Sequence record: MN508614.1 | Reading direction: 5' to 3' (one strand) | DNA from: Escherichia phage ES12 | DNA: 64,000 nucleotides | Shown here: one piece after another, positions 6,942 to 54,561 of the stretch | How positions within the stretch are numbered: position 1 is the first letter of the stretch | How the letters are laid out: each line of letters begins with the position of its first letter | The notes under the pieces: model-generated | Seen by the model: the letters and a program-made list of their open reading frames with translations, nothing else | Told to the model about the DNA's origin: nothing | The model's database searches: none | Made by a program: the position numbers and the translations under genes

Positions 6942-6971
6942 ATTATACCACATCCTTGTGGTAAAGTAAAC
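6942..6971 (-). promoter_or_regulatory. T4-type early promoter (GTTTAC, 18-nt gap, TATAAT) with CCACAAGGATGTGG hairpin in spacer
   Basis: attata 6942-6947, gtaaac 6966-6971; block identical to 51156-51185. Confidence 0.55.
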
Positions 6972-44335: not shown

Positions 44336-44806
44336 TTAATCATGTGTCCACACCCCATCGGTATTTGACCAAAGTCGCTGATTATCTGATCCTCGCCACA
44401 GCTTTTTGGTCGGAAGATTTTTCTCATACTTCCCATCAATAATAACATCAACATATTTAAGCATTTCTAGTTGTTTAATATCTTCAAACTTATATCCTGT
44501 CCACAACCAAATGCTTTTATTGGGATAAAGATTTTTAATAGTTTGAACCACAGAGTGAATCACGTCTCTGTTATCAGGATAGAGAGGGTCACCTCCGGTT
44601 ATAGTCAATCCTTCTATATAATCATTATTCAAACATTCAATTAATTGTTCTAGTGTTTCACCAGTGAATGGAACACCATTTCTAGCATTCCATGTTGATT
44701 TATTATAACACCCTTCACATTTATGCAAACAACCTGTAACGAAAAGAACGGTCCTGCAGCCAGGACCATTAACAAAATCGCAAGGATAAAATCTATCATA
44801 ATTCAT
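44336..44806 (-). CDS. nrdG: anaerobic ribonucleotide reductase activating protein NrdG (156 aa, radical SAM)
   Basis: Cys cluster CLHKCEGC; 156 aa as T4 NrdG; coupled to nrdD. Confidence 0.85.
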   Translation of the reverse strand: MNYDRFYPCDFVNGPGCRTVLFVTGCLHKCEGCYNKSTWNARNGVPFTGETLEQLIECLNNDYIEGLTITGGDPLYPDNRDVIHSVVQTIKNLYPNKSIWLWTGYKFEDIKQLEMLKYVDVIIDGKYEKNLPTKKLWRGSDNQRLWSNTDGVWTHD

Positions 44807-46620
44807 TGGTGCTTAACCCTATGCATGATTTCTTTATTTTTGCCGAGATTAAATCCGCGTTCGTTCGGATTTCCCAAATAACCACATGTTCTTCTTATTG
44901 TGTTCATCTTTTTAGGATCAGTTTCTCCACAAATAGAACAAACAAATCCGTTTTCAGTAGGAGTCATTTCATGGGTACTTCCACATGTAAAACATTTATC
45001 TACTGGCATATTAACACCAAAATAATCTAAATGTTGTGCAGCATAATCCCAGACAGCCTCAAGACCTTTTAGGTTATTTTTCATATCAGGAAGTTCAACA
45101 TAAGAAATGTGACCACCTGTCGCAATGAAATGATATGGGGCTTCGCGAGAAATCTTTTCAAACGGAGTAATATTTTCTTCTACTGAAACATGGAAACTAT
45201 TAGTGTACCAGCCTTTATCAGTAACATCTTTTACACTTCCATATTTTTCAGTATCAAGTTTACAGAAGCGATAACAAAGGTTTTCAGCGGGAGTAGAATA
45301 CAAGCTAAAAGCAAAACCGGTTCTTTCAGTCCACTGTTTAAGACGAGCATTCATTTTAGTTAAAATTTCCTGTCCAATATCACGACCGACAAGAATATTC
45401 AATTCGTGAATACCAATGTATCCTAGGGACACTGAACTTCTACCGTTTTTAAATAACTCAATTATGTCGTCATCAGGTTTAAGACGAACCCCGAATGCAC
45501 CTTCTTGGTAAAGAATAGGAGCAACAGTCGCTTTAACTCCTTTTAATGAACTAATTCTACACATCAAAGCTTCAAAACATAAATCCATTCGCTCATTGAA
45601 CAATTCGATAAATTTCTGTTCATTGAACTGTGTTCCAATATAAGAATCTAATGCGATACGAGGAAGATTCAGTGTTACAACACCAAGATTATTACGTCCA
45701 TCAAGAATTTCATTACCAGTCGAATCTTTCCATACGCTCAAGAAACTACGGCAACCCATCGGAGAAACAGGAATAGATGAACCGGTGATAGCTTTATTGT
45801 TCTTAGCTGAAATAATATCAGGATACATTCTTTTGCTTGCGCACTCTAGAGCAAGCTGCTTAATATCATAGTTCGGATCGTCTTTATAAAGATTAACACC
45901 TTCTTCAACAAACATAACAAGCTTAGGGAAAATAGGAGTTATCCCATCACGACCAAGACCTTTAATACGATTTTTCAGAATTGCTTTCTGAATCATTCGT
46001 TCAGTCCAGTCAGTTCCCGTACCAAATGTAATTGTTACAAAAGGCGTTTGTCCGTTTGAACTAAAGAGAGTGTTTACTTCATATTCATAAGCTTGAAATG
46101 CATCGTATACGTCTTTTTCTGTTTTAGATTGAGCATAATTCAACGCATCAGCGATTTGCCATTTTTCTGCATCCTCAATATGTTTTGCATAGGTGCGTTT
46201 AACATAAGGAGAAAGTACTTTATCTACATTCGCAAAAGTCGTTCCGCCGTATTGATGGGAAGCAACTTGCGCAGTAATTTGCGCCATAATTGCAGTAGCA
46301 ACGCCAATTGATTTAGGAGTTTCAATCTGTGCATTACCAAGCTTAAATCCGTTTTCAAGCATTCCTTTTAAATCTACTAAACAACAATTAGTAAATGGAA
46401 GAGCAGGGGAATAATCAATATCATGGAAATGAATAATTCCGCTTTCATGCGCTTTCATAATAAAAGACGGGACCATATTTTTGGCAATGTGTTTAGACAC
46501 AATACCAGCCATAAGGTCCCGTTGAGTTGGAAAAACACGAGAATCTTTATTAGCATTCTCGTTTAAAAGGTCTTTATTAGTTTTATGAATCAATCCTTCA
46601 ATTTCTTTTTCAATTGTCAT
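44803..46620 (-). CDS. nrdD: anaerobic ribonucleotide reductase NrdD (605 aa), uninterrupted
   Basis: C-terminal glycyl-radical and CxxC zinc motifs (CSICG...RTCGYLG); 605 aa; no intron. Confidence 0.9.
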   Translation of the reverse strand: MTIEKEIEGLIHKTNKDLLNENANKDSRVFPTQRDLMAGIVSKHIAKNMVPSFIMKAHESGIIHFHDIDYSPALPFTNCCLVDLKGMLENGFKLGNAQIETPKSIGVATAIMAQITAQVASHQYGGTTFANVDKVLSPYVKRTYAKHIEDAEKWQIADALNYAQSKTEKDVYDAFQAYEYEVNTLFSSNGQTPFVTITFGTGTDWTERMIQKAILKNRIKGLGRDGITPIFPKLVMFVEEGVNLYKDDPNYDIKQLALECASKRMYPDIISAKNNKAITGSSIPVSPMGCRSFLSVWKDSTGNEILDGRNNLGVVTLNLPRIALDSYIGTQFNEQKFIELFNERMDLCFEALMCRISSLKGVKATVAPILYQEGAFGVRLKPDDDIIELFKNGRSSVSLGYIGIHELNILVGRDIGQEILTKMNARLKQWTERTGFAFSLYSTPAENLCYRFCKLDTEKYGSVKDVTDKGWYTNSFHVSVEENITPFEKISREAPYHFIATGGHISYVELPDMKNNLKGLEAVWDYAAQHLDYFGVNMPVDKCFTCGSTHEMTPTENGFVCSICGETDPKKMNTIRRTCGYLGNPNERGFNLGKNKEIMHRVKHQ

Positions 46621-47131: not shown

Positions 47132-47308
47132 TTTAAGTATTGTAAAACATTCGATGCAATCGTTTATACTGTCGAATCATCTTTTTAGTAGGACGAGAAT
47201 AGGTTCCTACGCAAGTGGTCATATGAGGGTCCGTAGAATGTCCTTTAATAAAAAGTTTCCAAACCTTACCGCCATTTAACTTTTCAGTATAAACCAATTC
47301 GGTTTTCA
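47132..47308 (-). CDS. small protein (~58 aa) sharing the pin C-terminal tail
   Basis: Hand translation MKTELVYTEKLNGGKVWKLF...KKMIRQYKRLHRMFYNT; tail duplicated from pin. Confidence 0.3.
47134..47180 (-). repeat. direct repeat unit A (~45 bp, encodes MIRQYKRLHRMFYNT tail)
   Basis: aagtattgtaaaacattcgatgcaatcgtttatactgtcgaatcat vs unit B, ~5 mismatches. Confidence 0.6.
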
Positions 47309-47345
47309 TTAAAATGCCTTGTCAGAAAAAGAATTTTGAGTTTTT

Positions 47346-47394
47346 TCAAGTATTATAAAACATTTGATGCAATCGCTTATATTGCCGAATCATT
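47346..47394 (-). repeat. direct repeat unit B (3' end of pin)
   Basis: aagtattataaaacatttgatgcaatcgcttatattgccgaatcat. Confidence 0.6.
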
Positions 47395-47831
47395 TGGTCA
47401 GAAAAAGAATTTTGTGTTTCAAGCCATTCAATATATTCTGCCGCAGCTTGCATCAGGTTACCTTCATAATCATCAATATCTTTTTTCAATGCCACTTTAG
47501 CTAATGCATATGAAATACGTTCACCTTGAAAAGCGGCTTTAGGCTTCTGAACATCTTGGCTAGTTCTCTCTACAACTTCTTCAATTTCGCCATTTTCAAC
47601 GGATTCAGTATTCCACAAGCACCAATACGTAATTGGCTTATCATAGATGTTAATAATCTTTCCGTCGGAAAGTTCAATTTCAATAATTCCAGTATCAGGC
47701 TCTATATCATCTTCACATTCTTTTGTAAGTTCACGAACTTTAAAGACAGTACCTGCACTAAGTTCCGGCCAGTAATTACATAGCCCTGTATCAACACGAT
47801 TAATTCTAAACCACTTATCTACTGTAATCAT
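47346..47831 (-). CDS. Pin-position protein (161 aa from internal ATG; T4 protease inhibitor)
   Basis: ORF 47346..47849 trimmed to MITVDKW with GGAG RBS; 161 aa as T4 Pin; early promoter upstream. Confidence 0.5.
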   Translation of the reverse strand: MITVDKWFRINRVDTGLCNYWPELSAGTVFKVRELTKECEDDIEPDTGIIEIELSDGKIINIYDKPITYWCLWNTESVENGEIEEVVERTSQDVQKPKAAFQGERISYALAKVALKKDIDDYEGNLMQAAAEYIEWLETQNSFSDQMIRQYKRLHQMFYNT

Positions 47832-47871
47832 GTCCCATCTCCATATCAATTAAGTCATTTATCGTTGGTTC

Positions 47872-47953: not shown

Positions 47954-48124
47954 TTAACCCCGAAGCTTATTAAGTTCTTCATAATCAATCCAGGATTCTA
48001 GTCCTGATGGCAAATCAGATTCAATTTCCCAAAGAAGCTCTTCAATTTTCTGAAGACGATCTAGTTCTTCAGCTGGAATAGTAACCATTGATGGAGTTCT
48101 TGATACACTAATATCGTAAATCAT
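47954..48124 (-). CDS. hypothetical acidic protein (56 aa from internal ATG)
   Basis: ORF 47954..48163 trimmed to ATG just after upstream stop. Confidence 0.35.
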   Translation of the reverse strand: MIYDISVSRTPSMVTIPAEELDRLQKIEELLWEIESDLPSGLESWIDYEELNKLRG

Positions 48125-48126
48125 AT

Positions 48127-48342
48127 TTACCCCAGTTTGACCATGCAATCGCCGTATTTCCACTTAGAAATAGACTTTTCGCCATTAGAATAATAAACTT
48201 CGAGTTTAGCACGGTTATTTTTAATTTGAATAACCTTGGCTGTCATTAAAGTTCCATACCCATAGTAAACTGCAACTTCATCACCTACATATACCGCGCT
48301 TCCGCGGTAATCATGGATATAATCAGTTCCTTCGAGCATCAT
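48127..48342 (-). CDS. hypothetical protein (71 aa)
   Basis: ORF track; overlaps nrdC start. Confidence 0.45.
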   Translation of the reverse strand: MMLEGTDYIHDYRGSAVYVGDEVAVYYGYGTLMTAKVIQIKNNRAKLEVYYSNGEKSISKWKYGDCMVKLG

Positions 48343-48602
48343 TTAAAGTATTCCCGCAATTGGTCAAATCCACCAATATGACTTCCATCAGGAGCAAATA
48401 CCTGAGGCACTGTTAAGCCGATTTGAGTATCACGACCTAGTTTAGTCAGAAGCTCAGCGATTTTCTCATCATCAAAAACACCTTTTTCCGGCATAATGTT
48501 GATAAATTCAAACGGCTGTTTCTTCACGGTCAAAAGACGTTTTGCATTATCGCAATACACGCATTTATGAATGTTGCTATCATAACCATATACTTTAAAC
48601 AT
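48339..48602 (-). CDS. nrdC: thioredoxin/glutaredoxin NrdC (87 aa)
   Basis: CVYC active-site motif; 87 aa as T4 NrdC. Confidence 0.75.
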   Translation of the reverse strand: MFKVYGYDSNIHKCVYCDNAKRLLTVKKQPFEFINIMPEKGVFDDEKIAELLTKLGRDTQIGLTVPQVFAPDGSHIGGFDQLREYFK

Positions 48603-48603
48603 A

Positions 48604-48846
48604 TTATTCCTTAATTCCTAATACTTGTTTAAAAGTCTCGTCGTAATCAAGACTTTGGCCTGTTTGTTCTTTATGTTTGTATATAATATCACTTACTTCT
48701 GATAGCATATTTTTATATGAACGAGTTAAAGCAGATTTAAGCACGCTGTATCTATCAGGAAATTTACCGTGTTCATTATAATAAGCTATTGCTAATTCAC
48801 GGACTGCCTTTTCAGCAGCCTCCATATATTCTTTACGCTTTGTCAT
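48604..48846 (-). CDS. hypothetical protein (80 aa from internal ATG)
   Basis: ORF 48604..48987 trimmed to [10 protein letters not shown]. Confidence 0.4.
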
Positions 48847-49147
48847 TTTCTTCTCGGTCAAATCGGTGTTTACAATGGCGACATTTATAACGAAGATTAC
48901 TAGTCTGCCAATGGACCAATTGCACCTGTTCAGTTCCACATTCAGGGCAATTAGGAACGTTTTTAGAAGCACGTTCGCGGCGTTCAACCATGACCGTTAC
49001 AGAATCCCAATTAATAGGGCTGCTATAATCATCACAACCATGAATCTTTCCACGCATTTCCAAATCGTCTTCTTCACCGGCCATAATAATTTTAATTAAA
49101 CTGGAATTACTTGAAGCTGCAATGTCTTCTAATAGACGCTTTTTCAT
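48833..49147 (-). CDS. zinc-ribbon protein (104 aa; CPECG...CRHCKH)
   Basis: ORF track; two CxxC pairs. Confidence 0.5.
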
Positions 49148-50073
49148 TTCAATACCTCAATAGCATTACGTAAACCATTTGCTTTTGCATTAAGAGCTTT
49201 TAACAATTTGGTGTGTTCTGCAATTTGGGCTTCAACTTCAATCAAACGAGCATTGAGATATTCGCGTTCTTCACTCAGATTATCAGCCTTTTCTGCTTTA
49301 GGTTCTTTTACAACTTGCTTATATGTATTAGGGTTCTTCAGTTTAATTAGAATGCGTGAACTGTACAGCATTGAACCATTATCTTCGGTTTCGTCATACA
49401 TTTCCACTACGTCCATCATCTCCACCATCGTGCAGAGTTTATAAGACAACGAACGAATAATTTTGTTGTGCTTATTAATTTCTCTAGCTGTCATGGTGCC
49501 GAGATTACGTGAGTAATAATAAGGAACCTGGATATTAATTAATACTGATGAACCACCTGGCTTGTGTGTTACTTCATCAGCAATAACCCAATCCTTAACA
49601 TGAACTGTATTTGTACGGTCATCGCCCGCGGTAAATAGTTTACGAGCATGCTTAAAAAGCATATTCACTTGGTCATTGAATTGACAAGCGAATTTATCAG
49701 CAAATTTAGTTTCGGGAATGGTAGATAACCAATCAGCCAAATGAGTCTTTTTAACATCGTTAACAATAGTAAATTCAACCAAATCGGTTATAGATGTCTC
49801 AGATTTAATGAAGCTCGGCTTCATAAAGTTTTTAATGTTATCGCGAGCTACAGTAGAAGATAACATACGAGAACGTTTAAACCATTCAAGCAAATTGCCT
49901 AACGAATGAGAATAAGCGTTTTGAGTATCTTTACAGATATGATTTTCCTGGCCAACATATTGAAGGAAATCACGAAGAATATTATTGATTACTGCTCTGT
50001 GTCCTATCTGATAATTACGATGTTTAGTAATAAGACTGTCAAAATAATCAATATAATGTTTACGAGTTTTCAT
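49144..50073 (-). CDS. paralog family member 1 (309 aa, C-terminal coiled coil)
   Basis: ORF track; shares central LCxM block and coiled-coil tail with 50126, 51185, 52213. Confidence 0.6.
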   Translation of the reverse strand: MKTRKHYIDYFDSLITKHRNYQIGHRAVINNILRDFLQYVGQENHICKDTQNAYSHSLGNLLEWFKRSRMLSSTVARDNIKNFMKPSFIKSETSITDLVEFTIVNDVKKTHLADWLSTIPETKFADKFACQFNDQVNMLFKHARKLFTAGDDRTNTVHVKDWVIADEVTHKPGGSSVLINIQVPYYYSRNLGTMTAREINKHNKIIRSLSYKLCTMVEMMDVVEMYDETEDNGSMLYSSRILIKLKNPNTYKQVVKEPKAEKADNLSEEREYLNARLIEVEAQIAEHTKLLKALNAKANGLRNAIEVLK

Positions 50074-50125
50074 GTTCTTCTCACTTGGTTAATGATTTAT
50101 ACTCCGAGCCATCCTTGGCTTTAAA

Positions 50126-51127
50126 TTACTTAATTAACTGTAAAGCTTGTTCAAGACGATCCAGGCGATTAACAGATTCTTCCCAAATCCTTTTAGCCTG
50201 CTCATATTCTTTCTGCGCTTTATTAGAAATTTCTAGAACTTCTTTATAAGCTTTTTCTAGTGCAATAACTTCTGGACGAATTTCTACCGGTTCAGGTGAA
50301 TCATCAAGACATTCCATTAGTTCCTCAAGGGTAGTTTCTTCTTTAGGAGTATTCACAATTTCATCACATTTTTGTTGGTAAATTTCTTTACTAGTAGGTG
50401 AATAAGTACATTTCACTTCACGAAGACTAACTACAATTTTATATCCTTCCCAACCGCATATATTCTTAAAAGGATATGTATGAATATTTTCTACTGTTTC
50501 CATACAAAGTAATGCGGTCTCTAATTGACGAGTTATAGTGCTAGCAATTGAGAAAAATTTATTAATGTTCTTTTGGTTAGTTTCTGGTGTAAAAAATCCA
50601 TAATTCACAAAAATAGCTACTTTATTTTTATCAAGTTCATATTCTTTTATGATAATCATATCAGAAGCCAAAGGATGAATTTGACGATAATCGCCATAAC
50701 ATAATTTAGAAGCTGATTTTAGAATTTGCTTCTTGAAAAGTCTGAAATTACTAATCCAACGACGAGTAAAAATATTCTCAGGGTCTTCTTTATTATTGAG
50801 ATGATAAGAATTAACATCACCGAACCAATTATATCCTACTACATCTTTAGTTCGTTTAATTTCTTTCCCAAAATTACCAAGAATATCCCGATTAACCAAA
50901 TATGAAAGAAGACGAGACTCTTTAAAGGTTTTCTTGATAACATCTTTATCTACACGGCTAGAAATTTTACGAATTTCATGAATAAATTTAGTAGAAGAAA
51001 CAATACTTGCATCAACACTATTGAGCCATTGATTGATAATAGAAAGAACGATATTTTGACCAAACATCGGTATAGCTTTATCATCAATAACGCTATTGAA
51101 TGATTTGATATATTCGTTACGAGTCAT
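50126..51127 (-). CDS. paralog family member 2 (333 aa from ATG MTRNEY)
   Basis: FKKQILKSASKL motif matches FRKQLKQILSTASRL of member 3; promoter upstream. Confidence 0.6.
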   Translation of the reverse strand: MTRNEYIKSFNSVIDDKAIPMFGQNIVLSIINQWLNSVDASIVSSTKFIHEIRKISSRVDKDVIKKTFKESRLLSYLVNRDILGNFGKEIKRTKDVVGYNWFGDVNSYHLNNKEDPENIFTRRWISNFRLFKKQILKSASKLCYGDYRQIHPLASDMIIIKEYELDKNKVAIFVNYGFFTPETNQKNINKFFSIASTITRQLETALLCMETVENIHTYPFKNICGWEGYKIVVSLREVKCTYSPTSKEIYQQKCDEIVNTPKEETTLEELMECLDDSPEPVEIRPEVIALEKAYKEVLEISNKAQKEYEQAKRIWEESVNRLDRLEQALQLIK

Positions 51128-51155
51128 AATAATCTCCTCAGTAGAAAGTAAGAAC

Positions 51156-51185
51156 ATTATACCACATCCTTGTGGTAAAGTAAAC
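51156..51185 (-). promoter_or_regulatory. T4-type early promoter identical to the 6942-6971 block
   Basis: attata 51156-51161, gtaaac 51180-51185; 31-bp identity attataccacatccttgtggtaaagtaaact. Confidence 0.55.
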
Positions 51186-52204
51186 TAGTTCAGTGCATTT
51201 AATGCATTGTTCAGTTTAGAACGTTGCTTCGTGAGATTTTTGACTTTTTCTTGTGCTTTTTCTAGCATCTTTTCAGCTTCTAACACTTCATTGGTCGCTT
51301 TAACGAGTTCATCATCTACTGCCTTAAGGGACTTCTCAATCGCATCCGCGTGCCATTTTTCAACAGGTTTAAGACTCGGATTTTCAATAGGAAGAAAATT
51401 CACTTTATTGAATTTCCATGCATCTTTATTACCTGAACTATACATCCAAAATTTAGGATCATTTGACGAGTAATTAGATAAATTTAAGGTATCTTGTACT
51501 TCCTGCTTTTTCTCTTGTGTAACTTCGTCCTTTCTCAAAAAATCGTATTTAAATGAAACGATCATATCAAGTTCATATGTTGTTGTGTCTAATTTAAATC
51601 GTTCGAAATGCTGTGAAATCTTAGACTGAACTGCAGCAACAACATCCATATACTTAAATGCTTCTGTCAGCTGTGATTTAAGGCATTCACAAATTGAAAG
51701 AGAATTTTTTGTATTAGGTTTAAAGCTAATTCGTGCAGTTCTATTATTTTCTTTTAATGGTCTTACTTCCATCTGAAGAGTATAACCATCAAATTTCAGA
51801 TTCTTTAAGTTAATATCAGAGCCTTTTAATCGACTAGCCGTCGACAAAATTTGCTTTAATTGTTTACGGAATAGAGCAATAAATCTCCACTCAAGACGAT
51901 AATGATTTGGATTAAAAAATCCAGATGATAAATCGACCTTACTCTGACCAACACCTTGAACAAACAGAGGATTTTTATAATCAATAGTTTTACAGAAATC
52001 GGTGAGCTGCTCACGAGCAGTCATTTGTGTAATATACCCCGCTTTACTAAAATGACGTAACCATTCACTGCTATTCATATATTTAAAGTGAATATCACGA
52101 TTAACTTTATCAGGGTCTAAATTATTTTCACACAAAAATGTCATAACATCACGAGTATAGCTGGCATTACGAACCATATCTTCAATTTGAGAACGAGTTT
52201 TCAT
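51185..52204 (-). CDS. paralog family member 3 (339 aa)
   Basis: ORF track; coiled-coil C-terminus. Confidence 0.6.
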   Translation of the reverse strand: MKTRSQIEDMVRNASYTRDVMTFLCENNLDPDKVNRDIHFKYMNSSEWLRHFSKAGYITQMTAREQLTDFCKTIDYKNPLFVQGVGQSKVDLSSGFFNPNHYRLEWRFIALFRKQLKQILSTASRLKGSDINLKNLKFDGYTLQMEVRPLKENNRTARISFKPNTKNSLSICECLKSQLTEAFKYMDVVAAVQSKISQHFERFKLDTTTYELDMIVSFKYDFLRKDEVTQEKKQEVQDTLNLSNYSSNDPKFWMYSSGNKDAWKFNKVNFLPIENPSLKPVEKWHADAIEKSLKAVDDELVKATNEVLEAEKMLEKAQEKVKNLTKQRSKLNNALNALN

Positions 52205-52212
52205 GGTGTTCC

Positions 52213-53121
52213 TTAAGATTTAAGTAAATCAACAATTTTAATTAACTTTTCACGCTCAGATTTAGCTTTACTACTCAATCCAGATAGTCTGAAAATTTCA
52301 TCATCATATTGTTGAATAGAAATATTCAGCTCTTCAATTTGCTCATTAAAATAATCAATTTGCTCAGAATGTTTTTCGTTACTACGAACTGGTACAGGTT
52401 TTGTAGGTAATTTAGATGAACTGGATTCATCCGGGCGATAAATTAAAATACAACTTGAACCAATTGGACATTTTGCACCAGATGAATATTCTAACGTTCC
52501 AGCTTCTTTTAAAACTTCAAAAGCTAAACAGAGATGATGCCCCATATTAACATAATCTGTAGAGCGAGCTCTGATATAATAATCATCGCCGCGAATACTA
52601 AATTTAAAGCATTTAAGGTCTTCTGTATTATTGGTCTTAAAAATCATTTGTTTATCTAGACCTTTAGCTAATCGAGCGCCTAATGCTAATAATCGTCGTT
52701 GATTTTCCCACAAATCTGCGATCATTTGGTCAAATGATAATTTCGGCATTAATCGACCATAAAGGTCATATCCTTTATTATAATTGCGAAGGATTTCACT
52801 CGCATTAATACGAGACAACGCTCCAATTTTATTAAGGGCTTTCATGATGCGATTAGATAAACCCATTCCAGACCCGTTTGTTCGTTGTAAATGTTTATCT
52901 AATCCAAACCCAATATCAACTTTAAATTTATCTAAAATTTCAGCATGAACATCTCTGTCAATAACATTCAAATCCAAAGTTGGGTTAAATCTATGAAAAA
53001 ATTTATCTGGCTCTCCACGACGAAGTACAGTCCATTCATTCAATTTTTTATTAACTAAAGATTTAATTACTGCATTGACATTATTAATTACTACTGACAT
53101 ATTTTCCTCACTCAATTTCAA
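52213..53121 (-). CDS. paralog family member 4 (302 aa)
   Basis: ORF track; QRRLLALGARLAKG block and coiled-coil tail. Confidence 0.55.
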   Translation of the reverse strand: MKLSEENMSVVINNVNAVIKSLVNKKLNEWTVLRRGEPDKFFHRFNPTLDLNVIDRDVHAEILDKFKVDIGFGLDKHLQRTNGSGMGLSNRIMKALNKIGALSRINASEILRNYNKGYDLYGRLMPKLSFDQMIADLWENQRRLLALGARLAKGLDKQMIFKTNNTEDLKCFKFSIRGDDYYIRARSTDYVNMGHHLCLAFEVLKEAGTLEYSSGAKCPIGSSCILIYRPDESSSSKLPTKPVPVRSNEKHSEQIDYFNEQIEELNISIQQYDDEIFRLSGLSSKAKSEREKLIKIVDLLKS

Positions 53122-53515
53122 TTTTACTAAATATACAGAATAAGATGGAACAGACTATATAAACACCACACACAGATTGAACTAATACCATTCCAAAGAA
53201 CCAAACAATATTATCAAACAATGTCTGTTTTACGTCGAAAGGACGTAAACTTACAGTAATATTATCGCCTTTTTCTATTGATGAATACATCTCTGGTGAA
53301 ATATATTCGCTAAATCTATAACCGTCTTTGAGTTCATATACAGCAATAAACGATAAACTAGACCCCTTTCCTTGAGTTCCTGTAAAGGTATTAACTACAG
53401 TAACATCATAATCTTTATAATGCATATAATCATTAATTGCGTAATAACCATATGCAACTACTACACATAAACAACATATCAATAAATTCAATCTTTTAAT
53501 TATCAACTGTTTCAT
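53108..53515 (-). CDS. membrane protein (135 aa, N- and C-terminal TM segments)
   Basis: ORF track; hydrophobic ends. Confidence 0.5.
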   Translation of the reverse strand: MKQLIIKRLNLLICCLCVVVAYGYYAINDYMHYKDYDVTVVNTFTGTQGKGSSLSFIAVYELKDGYRFSEYISPEMYSSIEKGDNITVSLRPFDVKQTLFDNIVWFFGMVLVQSVCGVYIVCSILFCIFSKIEIE

Positions 53516-53544
53516 AATAATCTCAATTAAAAGGGCTTAGAACC

Positions 53545-53569
53545 ATTATACCATCCTTGGTATAAAGCG
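53545..53569 (-). promoter_or_regulatory. candidate promoter (CGCTTTA box variant, 12-nt gap with CCAAGGATGG, TATAAT)
   Basis: attata 53545-53550; degenerate copy of the 6942/51156 cassette. Confidence 0.35.
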
Positions 53570-53570
53570 G

Positions 53571-54098
53571 TTATGCGAGTACCGTCTTTAACCGTTCTTC
53601 AAACTTCCGAAGAGTATTTTGGCGTTCAGCTCTTTGCTTTTTGTAAGTTTCAATACGCTCTGAAATGAGAGTGTATCGTTCATTTACTGATTCTTTCATA
53701 AAATCAGGAATTTCACGAGAAGCTTTAATCTCATCAAATTTATCAATAACAGCTTGCTCTTCAGCAATTAAGTTATCATACATCAAAATATCTTTCTTGA
53801 TGAACTCAATATCTTCTTGAGTTACACGAGATAATTTAGATGCTTTATCCTTTTTGTACTGTTCGTTAGTATCACGAGACCAGTGTAATGTACGATTTTT
53901 ATTCGTATTCTTGTAAATTTCTACAATACCAATCTCATCGATAATAACGATCCAATTCCAACGAGATTTGTAAATTTGTCCTCCGTCAACCACGATTTCA
54001 CCTCCGATTGAGATGTCATTAAAGAACTTGCTTTGTGCTTCAGATTTAAATTTACCATCATTGTAGTTTACCAAGTTGAAAATATCTTTAGCATTCAT
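53571..54098 (-). CDS. hypothetical protein (175 aa from ATG MNAKDIF)
   Basis: ORF 53571..54158 trimmed; ATG follows conserved promoter leader. Confidence 0.5.
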   Translation of the reverse strand: MNAKDIFNLVNYNDGKFKSEAQSKFFNDISIGGEIVVDGGQIYKSRWNWIVIIDEIGIVEIYKNTNKNRTLHWSRDTNEQYKKDKASKLSRVTQEDIEFIKKDILMYDNLIAEEQAVIDKFDEIKASREIPDFMKESVNERYTLISERIETYKKQRAERQNTLRKFEERLKTVLA

Positions 54099-54125
54099 TT
54101 TTGTTCCTCCGTAGTTGATAGTTGT

Positions 54126-54155
54126 ATAGTACCACAGAGGAATGGTCTTGTAAAC
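54126..54155 (-). promoter_or_regulatory. T4-type early promoter (GTTTACA, TACTAT) with conserved leader
   Basis: atagta 54126-54131, gtaaac 54150-54155. Confidence 0.6.
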
Positions 54156-54157
54156 CA

Positions 54158-54472
54158 CTAAAAGAAACTTCTTTCACAATTTTTTCCACTGAACCAAGCG
54201 CTCACTGCTTTCTTAGTCTCAGGAGCAGTGTTATCCATAAACCATTCAAAAGCAGCCTTTTTATGATTCTGGAGGGCTTCTCGGGCTTTAATCTGCTCAC
54301 GGTCTATTAACACTAACATATGAGCCTTTCTTGTCACCAAGGGCTTCTTATGATTCTTGGAGTATTCCCAGTCATTTGTCCAACGCATTGTCGTTGCGAA
54401 CTGATGAACCGCGTCTTTAATTTTAGTTTCGTAAATTTCACGAGCCTTTGAGTATAACATCACTACCTCCAT
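54158..54472 (-). CDS. hypothetical protein (104 aa; likely starts at M5 after GGAGG)
   Basis: ORF track. Confidence 0.45.
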   Translation of the reverse strand: MEVVMLYSKAREIYETKIKDAVHQFATTMRWTNDWEYSKNHKKPLVTRKAHMLVLIDREQIKAREALQNHKKAAFEWFMDNTAPETKKAVSAWFSGKNCERSFF

Positions 54473-54561
54473 TTACCAGTTTAATTCTAATCATCTTTTT
54501 GATGGCAGTCCATATAATCTATTTCTGAACTGCCTTTTTGTCATAGAAGGCCTCTTATGAA

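Follow-up and report, generated by a model that had tools for sequence, protein, structure and literature searches.

Tandem genes nrdC.3, nrdC.4, and nrdC.6 of T4-like phages are ancient paralogs of the anti-Dsr1 gene nrdC.5 and candidate counter-defense genes

Introduction

A clone of phage T4 that carried deletions was unable to plate on strain ECOR17 owing to Dsr1, a SIR2/TPR defense protein, and supplying T4 nrdC.5 alone from a plasmid restored its growth on Dsr1-carrying cells (Srikant, Guegler and Laub 2022, PMC9391042). According to a 2026 preprint, the TPR sensor of Dsr1 detects the major capsid proteins of phages (PMC12803255). A functional analogue of NrdC.5 is DSAD1, the inhibitor of the SIR2 defense protein DSR2 from an SPbeta-type phage; both are phage proteins that lack an enzymatic signature and neutralize a SIR2-type NADase with a large sensor domain. 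Here we analyze the locus of nrdC.5 in Escherichia phage ES12 (MN508614.1), within a stretch of 64,000 nucleotides (nt) that we call the window. The subject of the study is a 3,978-bp array at positions 49144 to 53121, in which the gene at 51185 to 52204 is the ortholog of T4 nrdC.5 (DUF7235, PF23882; 94% identity). The other three genes, nrdC.3, nrdC.4, and nrdC.6, occupy the same locus and are its distant paralogs, predicted to share its architecture, but they differ from nrdC.5 in having no DUF7235 match and in being filed in separate database families.

By megablast, the array is 100% identical to that of Escherichia phage ES26 and 92 to 96% identical to hundreds of Tequatrovirus genomes, and the window phage is, judged by its sequence, itself a Tequatrovirus. 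We assigned its genes to T4 nrdC.3 (49144..50073, 309 amino acids [aa]), nrdC.4 (50126..51127, 333 aa), nrdC.5 (51185..52204, 339 aa), and nrdC.6 (52213..53100, 295 aa) by position and identity. All four lie on the minus strand, flanked by nrdC.2 and nrdC.7, within the stretch of early accessory genes from gene 49/nrdC to nrdC.11. The records still list them as "hypothetical" or mislabel them "thioredoxin," although no phage has been studied better than T4.

Results

The four genes belong to one superfamily

By BLASTP, nrdC.3 and nrdC.4 form the sole significant adjacent pair (E=2e-7, 24% identity over 270 residues); nrdC.4 versus nrdC.5 (E=0.43) and nrdC.5 versus nrdC.6 (E=0.21) are not significant. 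We built subfamily profiles from 100 loci of T4-like phages and about 220 database homologs and compared them with hhalign. The comparison took in subfamilies from single-copy T4-like genera (S4 to S8) and four control families (nrdC.8, nrdC.10, nrdC.11, and gp47). Full-length profiles linked nrdC.3 to nrdC.4 (98% probability, E=1.2e-13) and nrdC.4 to nrdC.5 (87%, E=4e-6, 234 collinear columns). The nrdC.5 profile also matched S8 (95%, E=2e-8) and S7 (93%, E=3e-7), S7 matched both nrdC.4 (89%, E=2.5e-6) and S4 (97%, E=5.5e-11), and nrdC.6 matched S4 (95%, E=6e-8) and S5 (79%, E=1.6e-5). No subfamily scored above 1.5% against a control (E of at least 0.035), and the links that join all four genes, directly or transitively, lie beyond that level. 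Compared directly with nrdC.3, nrdC.4, or nrdC.5, nrdC.6 stayed below 1% (E=0.13 to 0.47), and because these comparisons were not significant, its link to the others is transitive and structural. The same searches raised two further candidates. As a fifth family member, nrdC.8 was rejected (E of at least 0.13 against all subfamilies by hhalign), and a 339-aa window open reading frame (ORF) that weakly matched nrdC.4 (E=0.018) proved to be gp47 and then served as a negative control.

The initial annotation of this DNA had proposed that the genes are diverged paralogs and had raised the possibility that their shared blocks are compositional. The controls contradict that possibility, as do searches made with the coiled coil removed, for which we shortened each ORF of a local database by its last 65 residues and iterated hidden Markov model (HMM) searches from single-sequence seeds. 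The nrdC.3 and nrdC.4 seeds reached nrdC.5 in rounds 3 to 4 and nrdC.6 in rounds 4 to 5, and these searches matched no other window ORF in any round. All 136 matches were on the expected strand and syntenic, between nrdC.11 and nrdC; most were 270 to 370 aa long, and a few were split or truncated ORFs. The links likewise persisted in hhalign comparisons of the cores only, with probabilities of 98% for nrdC.3 and nrdC.4, 92% for nrdC.4 and S7, 87% for nrdC.6 and S4, and 69% for nrdC.4 and nrdC.5. An exhaustive search of 1.84 billion representative proteins with a four-family profile gave only 28 matches at E<=1e-3, and those with source information came from T4-like genomes. Given so few matches in so large a collection, the profile is specific and does not draw in generic coiled coils.

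A four-family MAFFT alignment placed the shared internal blocks noted in the initial annotation in register. Block B reads FRLFKKQILKSASK / FNDQVNMLFKHARK / FRKQLKQILSTASR / LWENQRRLLALGAR, block C is the LCxM..V helix, and an additional block, absent from that annotation, reads SRLLSYLVNRDILGNF / SRMLSSTVARDNIKNF / AGYITQMTAREQLTDF / IGALSRINASEILRNY. The N-terminal thirds had been called dissimilar throughout. This stands for nrdC.5 and nrdC.6, whose N termini show no sequence alignment with those of nrdC.3 and nrdC.4, but not for the latter two, which align with each other from residue 2 or 3 (MKTRKHYIDYF / MTRNEYIKSF). Of the four, nrdC.6 diverges most, and nrdC.3 is nearest to nrdC.4. Identity between paralogs within the window is 7 to 25% in any region, and a DNA-level repeat search across the array returned short chance-like matches only; there has therefore been no recent duplication or gene conversion. 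Together with the predicted order of structural elements and the five common structural neighbors described below, these results show that nrdC.3 to nrdC.6 are ancient tandem paralogs of one superfamily specific to T4-like phages.

We did not find this relationship stated in the searchable literature, in Pfam, or in PHROGs. PHROGs places nrdC.3 and nrdC.4 together in phrog_1435, and nrdC.5 and nrdC.6 are filed apart from them, the separate families being phrog_2257, PF26897 (the precomputed Pfam family of nrdC.4), PF26899 (nrdC.6), and PF23882; phrog_26858 is a weak match common to nrdC.4 and nrdC.5. In a Pfam scan, nrdC.5 matched DUF7235 at E=7.7e-123 (410 bits versus a gathering cutoff of 30), and the same model matched none of nrdC.3, nrdC.4, and nrdC.6. 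We suggest that the three Pfam domains of unknown function and three PHROGs be treated as one clan. Across many GenBank records, nrdC.3 to nrdC.6 are commonly annotated as "thioredoxin." The Pfam scan and the sequences themselves revealed no thioredoxin domain in any of the four; the label is an error that spread from the locus name nrdC.x, copied from the gene name without sequence support.

A common predicted fold and a C-terminal heptad helix

AlphaFold2 models were made for nrdC.4 (predicted local distance difference test [pLDDT] score of 80, predicted template modeling [pTM] score of 0.66) and nrdC.6 (pLDDT 77, pTM 0.65), and the architecture of nrdC.3 and nrdC.5 was taken from the alignment. 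The nrdC.4 model runs from N-terminal helices through a helix pair (H119-142), a hairpin (E158-174), a helix (H185-208), and a second hairpin (E212-235) to a linker of low confidence and one last helix (H285-332). In both models the kinked helix pair bears the KQILKSASKL / QRRLLALGARLA block and the long helix between the two beta-hairpins bears the LCxM..V block. The order of secondary-structure elements is identical in the two models, and their three-state (Q3) agreement on the four-family alignment is 0.68 over 265 columns, compared with 0.42±0.04 (maximum 52%) for circularly shifted controls. Foldseek searches of BFVD returned five targets common to both models (A0A345AUV5, E5EPQ6, A0A0A0PZG4, A0A7G3KGN9, and E5E4A2; E=1e-4 to 1e-7), all uncharacterized proteins of about 300 to 335 aa from T4-like phages of Acinetobacter, Pectobacterium, and Enterobacter. 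The nrdC.4 model also matched a T4-type nrdC.3 (E=9e-8), and two Foldseek targets from phage Acj61 have consecutive accessions, which suggests tandem copies in Acj61 too.

Thus, nrdC.4 and nrdC.6 share a predicted fold. The predicted family architecture, extended by alignment to nrdC.3 and nrdC.5, begins with a helical region, followed by an αα-ββ-α-ββ core, a linker that is flexible or disordered, and an amphipathic heptad helix at the C terminus. According to the models, the N-terminal helical region would differ between paralogs and the alpha/beta core would be conserved.

The last 49 residues of all four proteins form an unbroken heptad, with 86 to 93% hydrophobic residues at a/d positions versus 17 to 29% elsewhere (shuffle p<=0.003), as expected of the C-terminal coiled coil that had been noted in each. 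Counted from the C terminus, the heptad register is the same in all four. By heptad and motif tests, the helix spans aa 261 to 309 of nrdC.3 (49147..49293, minus strand, as are the others), aa 285 to 333 of nrdC.4 (50129..50275, ending RLEQALQLIK), and aa 291 to 339 of nrdC.5 (51188..51334, ending KLNNALNALN); in nrdC.6 a helical hairpin or coiled coil covers aa 242 to 295 (52216..52377, ending KLIKIVDLLKS). In the AlphaFold models, the C terminus of nrdC.4 is one 48-residue helix, and that of nrdC.6 folds as a helical hairpin. Of 95 unique family members, 64 carry a terminal signature, φ-x-x-small-φ-x-φ-φ-K/N and typically KLxxA[LIV]x[LA]LK, as against 0 of the 384 other ORFs of at least 250 aa from the same loci; in most members, the C-terminal heptad helix ends K-L-x-x-A-φ-x-φ-L-K. 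The core blocks and this C-terminal KLxxAφxφLK motif offer a family signature for finding relatives in other T4-like phages.

Copy number, alleles, and selection

A comparison of copy number across T4-like phages, an idea of the initial annotation, revealed one to four family copies per genome, in tandem at one syntenic site. The order nrdC.6-nrdC.5-(nrdC.4)-(nrdC.3) is conserved across genera. Four copies are found in Tequatrovirus; nrdC.6, an nrdC.5-like gene, and nrdC.4 in Dhakavirus and Gaprivervirus; nrdC.6-like, nrdC.5-like (hhalign 98%, E=1.3e-13), and nrdC.3-like genes in Mosigvirus; and, in several other genera, a single copy in the nrdC.2-proximal position. Given this spread of copies, the duplications are older than these genera.

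Variation continues at the level of alleles and individual genomes. Three allele classes of nrdC.3 were found, namely the window type, a Mosigvirus type (about 75% identity), and a T4 type (about 60%). Between the window gene (49144 to 50073) and that of T4 (locus L002, 6057 to 6983), both ends are 84 to 100% identical and residues 76 to 275 are 28 to 56% identical; synonymous divergence (dS) is about 0.9, and the flanking genes are 93 to 100% identical. The window nrdC.3 is, from this pattern of identity, best described as a mosaic allele replacement. Escherichia phage N2 (ON645936; locus L100, 3001 to 5152) has kept nrdC.3 and a 217-aa remnant and has lost nrdC.4 and nrdC.5, so copy number varies even inside Tequatrovirus, and vB_EcoM_G8 has a split nrdC.4. 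A hybrid database protein (P0119), present in three contigs of up to 167 kb, fuses nrdC.5 residues 146 to 270 to nrdC.3 from residue 138, the deleted DNA running from late in nrdC.5 through the whole of nrdC.4 into the beginning of nrdC.3. We considered unequal crossing-over between paralogs and rejected it: because the junction joins nonequivalent positions (nrdC.5 aa ~270 and nrdC.3 aa ~138), this is an ordinary deletion. Separately, the nrdC.6 homolog of Shigella phage Sf25 (P0121, 378 aa) has about 80 extra N-terminal residues, which may be an nrdC.7 fusion, a read-through, or a miscalled start.

The initial annotation had taken the diversification of the genes for a sign of a family under selection. 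Gene-wide pairwise NG86 (Nei-Gojobori) ratios of nonsynonymous to synonymous divergence (dN/dS) do not bear out ongoing positive selection: the values for orthologs of nrdC.3 to nrdC.6 (0.04 to 0.38) neither exceed 1 nor lie clearly above those of neighboring genes. They are similar to those of the neighboring accessory genes nrdC.8 and nrdC.10 (0 to 0.32), and nrdC.11 and gp49 have lower ones (0 to 0.07). Instead, the family has diversified by duplication long ago, by mosaic alleles, and by the loss of genes, and not by gene-wide positive selection.

Gene starts, promoters, and neighboring genes

The four consecutive minus-strand ORFs had been listed with lengths of 309, 333, 339, and 302 aa, and these hold except for the start of nrdC.6. 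The mechanical ORF of 302 aa begins at TTG 53121; ATG 53100, which gives 295 aa, has a GAGGAA Shine-Dalgarno sequence upstream, lies directly after the nrdC.7 stop codon, and is most likely the start as read from these signals. For nrdC.4, ATG 51127 is preceded by GAGGAG, and an in-frame ATG at 51157 was rejected as the start, as it sits inside a promoter.

That promoter, a T4-type early promoter with an embedded stem-loop (51156..51185, minus strand; CCACAAGGATGTGG), occupies the nrdC.5/nrdC.4 spacer and has the form GTTTAC-N18-TATAAT with a TG extension. The stem-loop CCACA-AGGA-TGTGG lies between the -35 and -10 hexamers, the -35 element overlaps the nrdC.5 stop codon, and the promoter is predicted to drive nrdC.4. 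The early-promoter pattern occurs 8 times in the window versus 0.19 expected by chance. An identical 30-nt copy (GTTTACTTTACCACAAGGATGTGGTATAAT) lies 44 kb away at 6942 to 6971 on the minus strand and accounts for a second megablast match per genome. In the nrdC.4/nrdC.3 intergenic region, direct reading of the sequence shows a stem-loop (AGCCAAGGATGGCT) followed by TATAAA (50096..50130, minus strand); it has the CAAGGATG loop region in common with the element at 51156 to 51185 and is a degenerate relative of the cassette upstream of nrdC.4. The two 30-nt copies may represent a mobile regulatory cassette like the promoter-early stem-loop (PeSL) type. The nrdC.6-nrdC.5 gap is 8 nt, and the two genes are therefore probably cotranscribed. 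An Rfam scan of 48000 to 54500 matched no family.

Several neighboring genes showed features of their own. The 104-aa nrdC.2 (48833 to 49147, minus strand) has a zinc-ribbon-like CxxC...CxxC motif (CPECG...CRHC), and its 4-nt overlap (ATGA) with the nrdC.3 stop codon suggests translational coupling. Between gene 49 and pin lies a 58-aa ORF (47133 to 47309, minus strand) with the C-terminal end ...MIRQYKRLHRMFYNT, almost the same as that of the adjoining pin (47346 to 47849, minus strand), ...MIRQYKRLHQMFYNT; this duplication of a 3' end resembles a trace left by insertion or recombination. Finally, nrdD (44803 to 46620, minus strand) is an uninterrupted 605-aa ORF, so the I-TevII group I intron, which interrupts nrdD in T4, is missing from the window phage.

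Discussion

Given that nrdC.5 disarms Dsr1, its paralogs nrdC.3, nrdC.4, and nrdC.6 become candidate counter-defense genes. Scans of the four proteins against Pfam, PHROGs, PADLOC, and PDB sequences found no enzyme or functional family beyond DUF7235, Pfam and sequence scans showed no DNA-binding signatures, and the four-family MAFFT alignment has no invariant column and hence no invariant polar residue. Because there is no invariant polar residue and no enzyme fold, and because nrdC.5 suffices against Dsr1, we infer inhibitors that bind without catalysis. On balance we lean, by a small measure, toward the view that nrdC.3 to nrdC.6 are a set of nonenzymatic, oligomeric counter-defense binders with paralog-specific targets. 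Under this counter-defense account, the array, part of an accessory region that is transcribed early and lies between nrdC and nrdC.11, and with nrdC.4 under its own early promoter, would be expressed early; the proteins would oligomerize through the C-terminal coiled coil; their divergent N-terminal and core surfaces would recognize different host defense proteins, which they would bind and inhibit without catalysis; and copy number (1 to 4) and alleles would track the defenses that each lineage meets. The initial annotation had offered host-factor binding or exclusion as an example of what the family might do, which agrees with the published action of nrdC.5 on Dsr1 (PMC9391042) and is an extrapolation for the other three.

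Several results weigh against this account. Published counter-defense experiments are confined to nrdC.5, which was sufficient against Dsr1, and our literature searches found no functional studies of nrdC.3, nrdC.4, or nrdC.6. Direct hhalign comparisons of nrdC.6 with the other three remained nonsignificant even with enlarged alignments, and the nrdC.5 and nrdC.6 seeds stayed in their own subfamilies for up to six coiled-coil-free rounds. The dN/dS values also carry no arms-race signature at the whole-gene level.

Of the alternatives, a role outside defense, such as host takeover, nucleotide metabolism, or replication-associated scaffolding, with an indirect effect of nrdC.5 on Dsr1, is unlikely, though slightly less so than the others. 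It would suit the position of the array among nucleotide-metabolism genes (nrdD, nrdC, and the tk region) and the purifying selection on orthologs, which resembles that on ordinary accessory genes, and we found no published mechanism for the effect of nrdC.5 on Dsr1. Against it, the genes can be dispensed with in the laboratory and had been lost by deletion from evolved T4 clones, the proteins carry neither enzyme nor DNA-binding signatures, distribution is patchy with variable copy number, and the neighboring gp49.2 is itself an antidefense gene that inhibits OLD defense (PMC13096335).

The common heptad register and terminal motif raise the possibility that the four paralogs are subunits of one hetero-oligomer, joined through their coiled coils and serving a single function, anti-Dsr1 or other; the 8-nt spacing and probable cotranscription of nrdC.6 and nrdC.5 and the gene order kept across genera would fit. 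We give this a low probability, since many T4-like genera have a single copy (21 loci), members are lost naturally (nrdC.4 and nrdC.5 in N2, the split nrdC.4 of vB_EcoM_G8), and plasmid nrdC.5 by itself rescued the deletion phage on Dsr1 cells (PMC9391042). Doubtful, too, is the idea that the core mimics a tail terminator or tail completion fold, so that early decoys would fill defense sensor domains before the late structural proteins arise. Two Foldseek matches are annotated "tail terminator" (probability 0.80 to 0.93), and the TPR domain of Dsr1 is reported to sense a structural protein of phages, but the reported trigger is the major capsid protein rather than a tail terminator (PMC12803255), and PDB-sequence and Pfam scans gave no sequence-level link. 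Finally, that the genes are unrelated and merely alike in composition (Lys/Leu-rich helices and a generic coiled coil) is very improbable: the nonsignificant BLASTP pairs and the three separate families kept by Pfam and PHROGs would fit, but the controls, nrdC.8 included, stayed at E of at least 0.035, the links outlast the cutting of the last 65 residues, only 28 of 1.84 billion proteins match the family profile, secondary structure is in register, and Foldseek neighbors are common to both models.

A bolder form of the counter-defense account, which we consider unlikely as it stands, is that NrdC.3 to NrdC.6 form a modular scaffold, in which a conserved core and coiled coil present exchangeable recognition surfaces and each paralog or allele neutralizes a different Dsr1/Avs7-type sensor-effector, possibly by mimicry of structural proteins. 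It would account for the mosaic central region of nrdC.3 and for the divergent N termini, and if it were true, the array would be a readable record of the defenses met by a phage lineage. Under the more general counter-defense account, nrdC.3, nrdC.4, and nrdC.6 are three concrete candidates for testing against defense libraries, and variation in copy number and alleles could help to explain how host range differs among therapeutic T4-like phages.

Set beside other known systems, the array resembles some and departs from others. Lambda gpU-like tail terminator and completion proteins give weak scores and have no sequence similarity to the nrdC genes, which are early, nonstructural, and about three times longer. 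PeSL cassettes have reportedly been described in T4-type hyperplastic regions, by Arbiol in 2010 and Comeau in 2014. The nrdC.5/nrdC.4 spacer, a putative PeSL-like element, is like them in combining an early promoter with a stem-loop, with an identical copy 44 kb away and a degenerate copy before nrdC.3; it differs in that the stem-loop sits between -35 and -10. A parallel in genomic setting is with the antidefense clusters of T4-like phages, such as the dmd-tifA-adfA "anti-TA island" and the anti-OLD gene gp49.2, which lies about 1 to 2 kb from the array in T4 and T6. Like nrdC.3 to nrdC.6, these are early, dispensable accessory genes in hyperplastic regions that vary between related phages, but they encode unrelated small proteins, whereas the array encodes four paralogs of 300 to 340 aa. 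The relationship among nrdC.3 to nrdC.6 adds modestly, but usefully, to a kind of system already known.

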